The notes beneath the pieces are model-generated. The model did not search any database and was not told the DNA's origin. It was given only the letters and a program-made list of their open reading frames with translations. 64,000 bases of DNA from a virus. Lineage: Duplodnaviria > Caudoviricetes. The DNA is taken from the IMG/VR virus record IMGVR_UViG_3300035497_000162, positions 32,001 through 96,000 of that record, one strand, 5' to 3'. Both the position numbers and the translations under genes were made by a program. Numbering within the stretch: position 1 is the stretch's first letter; the number at the start of each line of letters is the position of its first letter. Shown piece by piece: positions 44,867-45,183 of the stretch.

Positions 44867-45183
44867 GAGGTAGTTTATCCCTTTTAAGTACATCGCTACT
44901 CGTATAGAGCTTAGGTGTAAAGTTATGTTATTTGAGGTTTTATATGTATACTAAATAACATAGTAATAAAACTCAGGATATGGTTCTATTATTAAATTAA
45001 GAGTTTTATATGTATACTAAATAACATAGTAATAAAACAATCTGTACATATATTTTGTATTAATTGTTTTATATGTATACTAAATAACATAGTAATAAAA
45101 CGAAAAAACATAAGATTAATAATTTAGAGTTGTTTTATACATATACTAAATAGCATAATAGAAAAACATCTTTAGTAAATAGT
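44867..45183 (+). CRISPR. guide cassette 6: scaffold, 4 repeats, 3 spacers, terminal guide
   Basis: Repeats at 44937, 45003, 45066 and 45132 (degenerate); spacers of 30, 27 and 30 nt. Confidence 0.93.

Follow-up and report, generated by a model that had tools for sequence, protein, structure and literature searches.

We found that the leader-distal spacer of a short CRISPR-like array in a T4-like phage genome (spacer 45102-45131 of array B) matches the start of a gene of the same phage (1969-1998) at 28 of 30 positions on the same strand, and that the two stand in a genuine spacer-protospacer relation. Whether this spacer also truly serves as a guide, in a CRISPR-like system that the phage encodes and that derives from TnpB, is in our judgement an evenly balanced question. 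Positions refer to the window, that is, the whole stretch of 64,000 nucleotides that was analysed, unless they are given for the genome. The virus record containing the window is 119,730 bp long (119.7 kb), is rated 94% complete, has 26% G+C and encodes a T4-type portal and a Gp23-type capsid protein. The features discussed are collected in Table 1.

Table 1. Coordinates of the target gene, the nuclease gene and the scaffold-repeat cassettes in the window.
Feature	Position	Strand	Description
Target gene (ORF)	1967..2257	+	96-aa ORFan; strong Shine-Dalgarno 7 nt upstream
Near-protospacer, own genome	1969..1998	+	guide positions 1-12 perfect
Shortened scaffold upstream of nuclease gene	8746..8818	+	anti-repeat/repeat stem deleted; followed by 12-nt mini-spacer and decayed repeat
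TnpB-type nuclease	8882..10126	+	414 aa; sole copy in genome; RuvC triad D198/E306/D402; CxxC...CxxC zinc finger
Cassette after nuclease	10137..10280	+	scaffold 10 nt past stop codon; then spacer, truncated repeat, second spacer
Single-spacer cassette	39855..39990	+	spacer 39961-39990 matches 39192-39221 at 28/30; mismatches at guide positions 2-3
Cassette abutting tRNA-Thr	43668..43773	+	starts 6 nt after tRNA-Thr
Array A	44573..44743	+	scaffold, two repeats, one 27-nt spacer
tRNA-Cys	44789..44863	+	directly upstream of array B scaffold
Scaffold of array B	44867..44936	+	stem 1, stem 2 with nested hairpin, anti-repeat; 3-4 nt after tRNA-Cys
Array B	44937..45167	+	repeats 44937-44972, 45003-45038, 45066-45101; degenerate terminal repeat 45132-45167; spacers 30, 27, 30 nt
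Spacer under study	45102..45131	+	30 nt; third, leader-distal (oldest) spacer of array B
Four-repeat cassette	57991..58291	+	spacers 1 and 2 are alleles of a single foreign coding sequence

The reading of the sequence agreed in every detail with the first-pass annotation, which had described this match. The near-protospacer begins at the G of the ATG of ORF 1967-2257, covers codons 2-10 and ends after two bases of codon 11. At guide position 13 the spacer has G where the phage's own site has A, giving AAG vs AAA in codon 5, a synonymous Lys difference as had been claimed. At guide position 29 the spacer has T and the self site C (TT- vs CTA, codon 11). This second difference is real, and its description as a synonymous Leu change (TTR/CTA) requires an A or G in the source as third base of the codon, a base that on the spacer side lies inside the repeat. 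The flanks had been given correctly as well: TTAAT on the 5' side (1964-1968), made of three untranslated bases and the AT of the start codon, and AAGAGT on the 3' side (1999-2004).

Only two of the 23 spacers stand out from the background, namely 45102-45131 and 39961-39990, the latter against 39192-39221. The best background matches of the remaining spacers reach 19-24/30. In a genome of 74% A+T, and with a spacer that is itself A/T-rich, a fortuitous match had to be weighed; yet the base composition of the genome predicts 5.7e-7 matches of at least 28/30 per genome (1.3e-5 over all 23 spacers), and the next best match of spacer 45102-45131 in the genome is only 22/30. Chance was rejected on this expectation, and its probability appears vanishingly small. 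In neither 28/30 pair does any similarity continue past the spacer borders; this exact stop at both borders fits the insertion of a measured fragment, not a duplication.

The repeat, 36 nt long, occurs in mini-arrays that all lie on the + strand, each directly 3' of a conserved element of ~70 nt that we call the scaffold. The genome holds ten copies of this element, forming ten scaffold-plus-repeat cassettes on one strand. Seven of the copies are inside the window (8746, 10137, 39855, 43668, 44573, 44867 and 57991), where the repeat gave nine matches vs 0 expected. Array B has the make-up of a CRISPR array, with three perfect 36-nt repeats and one degenerate repeat separating unique spacers of similar length. 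It also has a polarity, as the ~70-nt element stands upstream and the decayed terminal repeat at the opposite end. The repeat 5' of the spacer under study (45066-45101) is perfect, and the terminal repeat has 6 differences. The "leader" of the array is itself a structured RNA.

The cassettes vary in their surroundings and in their state of preservation. In the 10137 copy and in genome copy 28871, anti-repeat and repeat are collapsed to a short hairpin, making a natural single guide of 87 nt (10137-10223 in the former). Cassettes 43589-43773 and 44789-44972 resemble natural tRNA-guide fusions (with tRNA-Thr and tRNA-Cys, respectively), and tRNA 3' processing could set the scaffold 5' end in both. 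Right after the last repeat of array A, positions 44744-44781 hold a tRNA-like fragment, similar to a T-arm and a 3' acceptor strand; a tRNA gene may have been the landing site of the array A cassette or its partner in recombination. A solitary degenerate half-repeat lies between tRNA genes at 44129-44153, and a truncated terminal repeat (39991-40017) follows the single spacer of the 39855 cassette. An A/T-rich motif with TATAAT immediately precedes the first G of the scaffold in at least five cassettes (8700-8745, 10126-10136 and 57975-57990, and also genome 11845 and 28855) and is likely a dedicated promoter -10 element. Near array B, a GIY-YIG homing endonuclease ORF (46287-47126) is found between ORFs 45285-45860 and 47253-48389. 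These two ORFs gave no family match and might be read as the halves of a split large-terminase gene; around 45285-48389, no group I intron reached the Rfam gathering score.

Scaffold copies 8746 and 10137 flank the only TnpB-type gene of the genome. Its product matches Pfam families PF12323, PF01385 and PF07282 and has the HTH, the RuvC D-E-D residues and the TNB zinc finger of a TnpB protein. ISDra2 TnpB is a full-length match (E 1e-32), its D191/E278/D361 aligning with D198/E306/D402 and the zinc finger being kept; judging by this alignment, the catalytic triad is intact. LaTranC matched residues 259-410 only, the C-terminal RuvC part (E 5e-16), and UnCas12m4a matched at 8e-5, so that ISDra2 TnpB is far closer. 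We found no Cas1 (PF01867) in the 94%-complete genome, while it was detected in control genomes. No Y1 transposase (TnpA) was found in the genome either, and an informal look revealed no recognisable IS ends. The nuclease is the only candidate effector for guides in this genome and would presumably be the protein that uses them.

Two metagenomic relatives of the nuclease, L008 (54% aa) and L009 (52% aa), retain this arrangement. In L008 the nuclease gene is followed by the scaffold, an array of nine repeats and then the gene that also lies downstream in our phage; L009, a short contig, has the nuclease and the scaffold and breaks off within what begins as a first repeat. The scaffold thus lies directly 3' of the nuclease gene in three divergent members, and the effector stands beside an array in this phage and in L008. 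When 88 phage TnpB loci from IMG/VR were scanned, no array was found apart from that of L008; the array-like appearance of one locus (L064) proved to be a coding 66-nt tandem repeat and was discarded. A more distant nuclease relative (P0004, 38% aa) has neither scaffold nor array adjoining. As a separate observation, the 12-nt mini-spacer upstream of the nuclease start (8819-8830, between decayed repeats) recurs identically twice in L008 at the distal end of the array (4429-4440 and 4532-4543), despite the 54% nuclease identity. This conservation suggests a fixed, perhaps regulatory, guide; the mini-spacer has no target in this genome, L008 or L009 with one mismatch allowed.

An alignment of the ten scaffold copies of the phage with the copies of the two relatives supports a structured RNA. 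The consensus fold comprises stems 1 and 2, the second with a hairpin nested in it, and a further stem joining the end of the element to the 3' half of the repeat. In this fold 94.3% of cells are paired, compared with 33-54% when the partners are slid by one to three columns. Compensatory changes occur in six pairs; the slid controls have 0-2 and shuffles 2.6 on average. The computationally predicted helix 4, between anti-repeat and repeat, has 11 pairs with 90% of cells paired. The repeat of L008 differs in its 5' half, and the L008 element has a long anti-repeat complementary to that different repeat; in L008, therefore, the anti-repeat co-varies with the repeat. Around the nuclease gene, the element had no Rfam match at E up to 1.

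These data bear on the possibility that the arrays serve a Cas effector of the host, as virus-borne mini-arrays do, which we consider quite unlikely. The repeats are type II-like in size and ends (36 nt, GTTTT...AAAAC, with 30-nt spacers), no adaptation gene (Cas1) was found in the phage, and the repeat has a weak likeness to Rfam CRISPR-DR22 (20.6 bits, below the cut-off of 50). The 3' end of the CRISPR-DR22 model, as we assume, resembles the reverse complement of the start of a type II-A repeat; if so, the type II-A likeness would be antisense to the scaffold-driven transcript. Against a host effector, each array is fused to a scaffold carrying an anti-repeat to its own repeat, with the co-variation seen in L008, and the scaffold follows the nuclease gene directly in all three divergent members. 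Moreover, when 185,579 species, each represented by one genome, were scanned for the exact repeat ends at array spacing, a search that would miss diverged host repeats, one chance match resulted; the same scan gave one chance match in IMG/VR and none in metagenome contigs.

By its anatomy, the phage system is a TnpB-derived, type V-like and TranC-like system. TranCs are intermediates of 300-600 aa that arose several times from TnpB (PMC13565253; bioRxiv 10.1101/2025.09.28.678669). With TranCs and small type V systems such as Cas12f it shares a TnpB-sized RuvC nuclease beside a CRISPR array, the lack of adaptation genes, and a tracr-like RNA with an anti-repeat and a repeat-spacer part, the guide being 3' of the repeat. 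It differs from TranCs in that its likeness to LaTranC is weak and confined to the C-terminal RuvC, with ISDra2 TnpB closer over the full length, which makes an independent transition probable. Further differences are that its carrier is a lytic-type T4-like phage, that the scaffold runs straight into the first repeat and is present in ten copies genome-wide with mini-arrays, that natural single guides have arisen by collapse in two copies and that two abut tRNA genes.

The closest solved protein is ISDra2 TnpB, which works with an omega RNA (IS200/IS605, OMEGA). Domain order, RuvC triad and zinc finger are shared, as are the position of the scaffold immediately 3' of the gene and that of the guide at the scaffold 3' end. 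In contrast to ISDra2, the phage system has no TnpA, its scaffold starts past the stop codon and not inside the gene, and the guides are interchangeable spacers between repeats instead of DNA flanking a transposon end; in contrast to OMEGA RNAs, the scaffold matches no Rfam family. Residence in a transposon is not indicated, since there is no Y1 transposase and the scaffold occurs ten times, with repeat-spacer units, away from the gene. Phage-borne CRISPR-Cas systems (ICP1 type I-F, and Cas-phi and Cas-lambda of huge phages) likewise place effector and arrays in a phage (compare PMC12141684); those effectors are established Cas families at a single locus, whereas here the effector is a TnpB by size and sequence and the arrays are scattered. 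The present system is unusual in being carried by a lytic-type phage and in its dispersed scaffold-guide cassettes.

The placement of the two mismatches is informative when read against ISDra2 TnpB, in which cleavage is decided by the 12 bases nearest the TAM: it is lost with double mismatches at positions 1-12 and tolerates those at 13-16 (PMC10097598). By analogy, mismatches 13 and 29 probably do not protect the self 1969 site, and the 39192 site would be protected by its mismatches at guide positions 2-3. Since mismatches 13 and 29 leave these 12 bases untouched, the phage must be spared by the lack of a TAM or by some other factor. The two differences, at a third codon position and at the first position of a Leu codon, look like neutral allelic divergence and not like an escape device. 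The simplest way of sparing the self site would be that TTAAT is not a TAM, and a sibling could differ in this flank at no protein cost. It should be noted that known TnpBs have T-rich TAMs, which TTAAT resembles.

The first-pass annotation had left two options for the 1969 site, a counter-example to a guessed CCT TAM or a TAM-less self site; with both mismatches outside the 12 TAM-proximal bases, the latter is the better one. The CCT guess was based on a single site. The two near-self sites have unlike flanks (TTAAT and AACCT on the 5' side, AAGAGT and GGAGAT on the 3' side, for 1969 and 39192 respectively), and the six sites of the own genome that match perfectly over the 12 proximal nt differ in their flanks and add nothing consistent; consequently no TAM motif can be derived, and the TAM inference was rejected. 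Near the 1969 site we also observed that the C of the self allele at guide position 29 creates an AGCT (1994-1997) that the spacer allele does not have, and that a C5 cytosine methylase is encoded two genes downstream (2845-4872).

An imperfect guide could in principle bind the start of ORF 1967 uncut and so tune this ORF together with the phosphoesterase and methylase genes that lie downstream. The site extends over the start codon and the first ten codons, pairing of the guide would be with the template strand, and CRISPR loci are known to contain regulatory cr-like RNAs that match their targets partially (bioRxiv 10.1101/2023.03.03.530964). On the other hand, the nuclease has kept its catalytic triad, the rules of ISDra2 make a 28/30 match whose 12 proximal nt are perfect a substrate for cleavage and not for binding alone (PMC10097598), and the other near-self site lies mid-gene and has seed mismatches that would prevent binding. 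We regard such autoregulation as very unlikely.

The target gene lies upstream of phosphoesterase and C5 DNA methylase genes, and the gene calls of other assemblies include it as well. Its product found only itself among 5.8 billion proteins, and phages with a capsid protein ~80% identical to that of our phage, including one complete genome, have no orthologue. Because ORF 1967 is restricted to this lineage, the source of the spacer must lie within it, and a lineage-internal origin is well founded from these comparisons. The source would be a sister or an ancestral genome of the same lineage, a sister donor being plausible, if unproven. The earlier proposal that the spacer was acquired from a close relative is thus strengthened, by the ORFan nature of the target, as far as an origin inside the lineage is concerned.

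Searches for the donor sequence gave the following results. No perfect protospacer of 45102-45131 was found in IMG/VR or in JGI metagenome contigs, blastn against GenBank phages at E up to 10 returned noise only, and five related phage records searched whole for spacer matches gave 21/27 at best. All other contigs carrying ORF 1967, from at least five samples, are 100% identical to the window and have the self allele. When sister alleles of ORF 1967 and of the 38640 gene were sought through their proteins, only identical copies or homologues of 36-48% appeared. The absence of a perfect protospacer from related phages, which the first-pass annotation had taken as counting against a relative as donor, is uninformative: only identical copies and no non-identical close relative have been sampled, records very near to this phage may be hidden from such searches, and such a negative cannot separate a sister from an ancestral or self donor.

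The remaining spacers offer a few further clues, 21 of the 23 having no known target. Spacers 58097-58123 and 58160-58189 are two alleles of one reading frame, with 21 of 27 bases shared. Their differences are synonymous or conservative in the same frame, and both end in IKTLFN; the coding sequence is absent from this genome, which holds nothing closer than 21-22/30, and a protospacer search for the pair in the collections found none. Spacer 39961 matches the gene beside its own cassette, at a mid-gene position, and its target search in the collections likewise found none. This match to a neighbouring gene and the 58097/58160 pair speak for spacers that track allelic variation. Four matches of spacer 44681 were dismissed as chance, each ending exactly at the pattern.

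The spacer might instead be a relic, taken long ago from the phage's own or an ancestral genome and since drifted, so that it is now a guide with neither target nor function. It is indeed leader-distal and stands beside a decayed terminal repeat, its mismatches fall at positions of no expected functional weight, and there is no adaptation gene; in addition, the arrays are unchanged across samples and the collections searched contain no perfect target. However, the functionally relevant repeat, the one 5' of the spacer, is perfect, and the spacer has kept its length and borders. The ten cassettes retain the scaffold structure with compensatory change, which argues for a system in use, and a self-derived spacer with a perfect seed should be counter-selected unless its site has no TAM. 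We therefore judge the relic explanation unlikely, if less so than the service of a host effector.

We propose instead that the spacer works as a guide against sibling phages, a model that in our opinion is as apt to be right as wrong. The transcript of tRNA-Cys, scaffold and array B would be processed, and the anti-repeat of the scaffold would pair with the repeats, with the first in cis and with the later ones in trans. The 414-aa nuclease would then bind the scaffold, the repeat 3' half and the spacer, and the spacer would lead it to DNA with a TAM 5' of the match. The spacer itself would have been taken from the ORF 1967 start of a same-lineage genome carrying the sister or ancestral allele. 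Its most likely use would be the cutting of sibling phages that co-infect the same cell, leading to the exclusion of competitors or to localized marker exclusion as with the free-standing homing endonucleases of T-even phages, the phage's own site being spared by its lack of a TAM or by another factor. As a present activity, this anti-sibling use is plausible, if unproven.

Several observations speak against the anti-sibling model. Positions 1-12 match the phage itself perfectly, and the rules of ISDra2 would allow self-cleavage if TTAAT were a TAM. The collections searched contained no perfect protospacer, most spacers are without a known target (21/23), the arrays are static and no route of spacer acquisition is evident. 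All other samples containing the phage show the same array region, with no spacer turnover seen. A wider reading, which we advance tentatively and doubt somewhat more than we trust, is that a lytic T4-like phage turned TnpB into a private multiplexed CRISPR-like weapon in an independent TnpB-to-type-V transition. Its ten promoter- or tRNA-driven cassettes would be tuned to sibling alleles, and TAM or seed differences would spare the phage.

Two known forms of inter-virus competition invite comparison with the anti-sibling model. Mini-arrays of the SPV1/SPV2 type are likewise short arrays in a virus genome, and their spacers target close relatives in a competition between viruses (PMC11656645). 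They differ in borrowing the repeats and Cas proteins of the host, whereas here the phage supplies effector and tracr-like RNA; the spacers of our phage gave two near-self matches, and none in relatives or in the collections searched. As with the T-even Seg and Mob homing endonucleases, a nuclease of a T4-like phage would tell self from sibling by few substitutions and would cut the sibling during co-infection, the settings known there being intronless homing and localized marker exclusion (PMC13565253). Unlike in Seg and Mob, recognition would be RNA-guided and multiplexed. The near-target of spacer 45102-45131 is also 43 kb from its cassette, so that homing of the cassette does not apply to it, leaving only exclusion or conversion of the target region, without spread of the cassette.

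Potential competitors can be found among the relatives by capsid protein. Five IMG/VR genomes (G001-G005) have capsid proteins 78-83% identical to that of our phage, one of them being complete at 132,855 bp, and nuclease, scaffold and arrays are absent from all five. The system is thus confined to a narrow branch, and array-free potential competitors of the phage exist.

If our reading holds, the origin of type V from TnpB, the mini-arrays of viruses and the marker exclusion of phages meet in one system. It would also provide a testable case of self/sibling discrimination by an array-bearing TnpB without adaptation genes, for which 45102-45131 is the sharpest test object, because its 12 proximal bases match the self site perfectly and sparing must rest on the TAM or on something else. 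The compact format (414-aa nuclease, ~90-106-nt scaffold, 87-nt single guide) would then be of interest for genome editing, and engineered tRNA-guide arrays would have a natural parallel in the cassettes fused to tRNAs. Finally, the anti-sibling reading, if true, would give T-even homing endonucleases an RNA-guided counterpart, acting by exclusion or by gene conversion.
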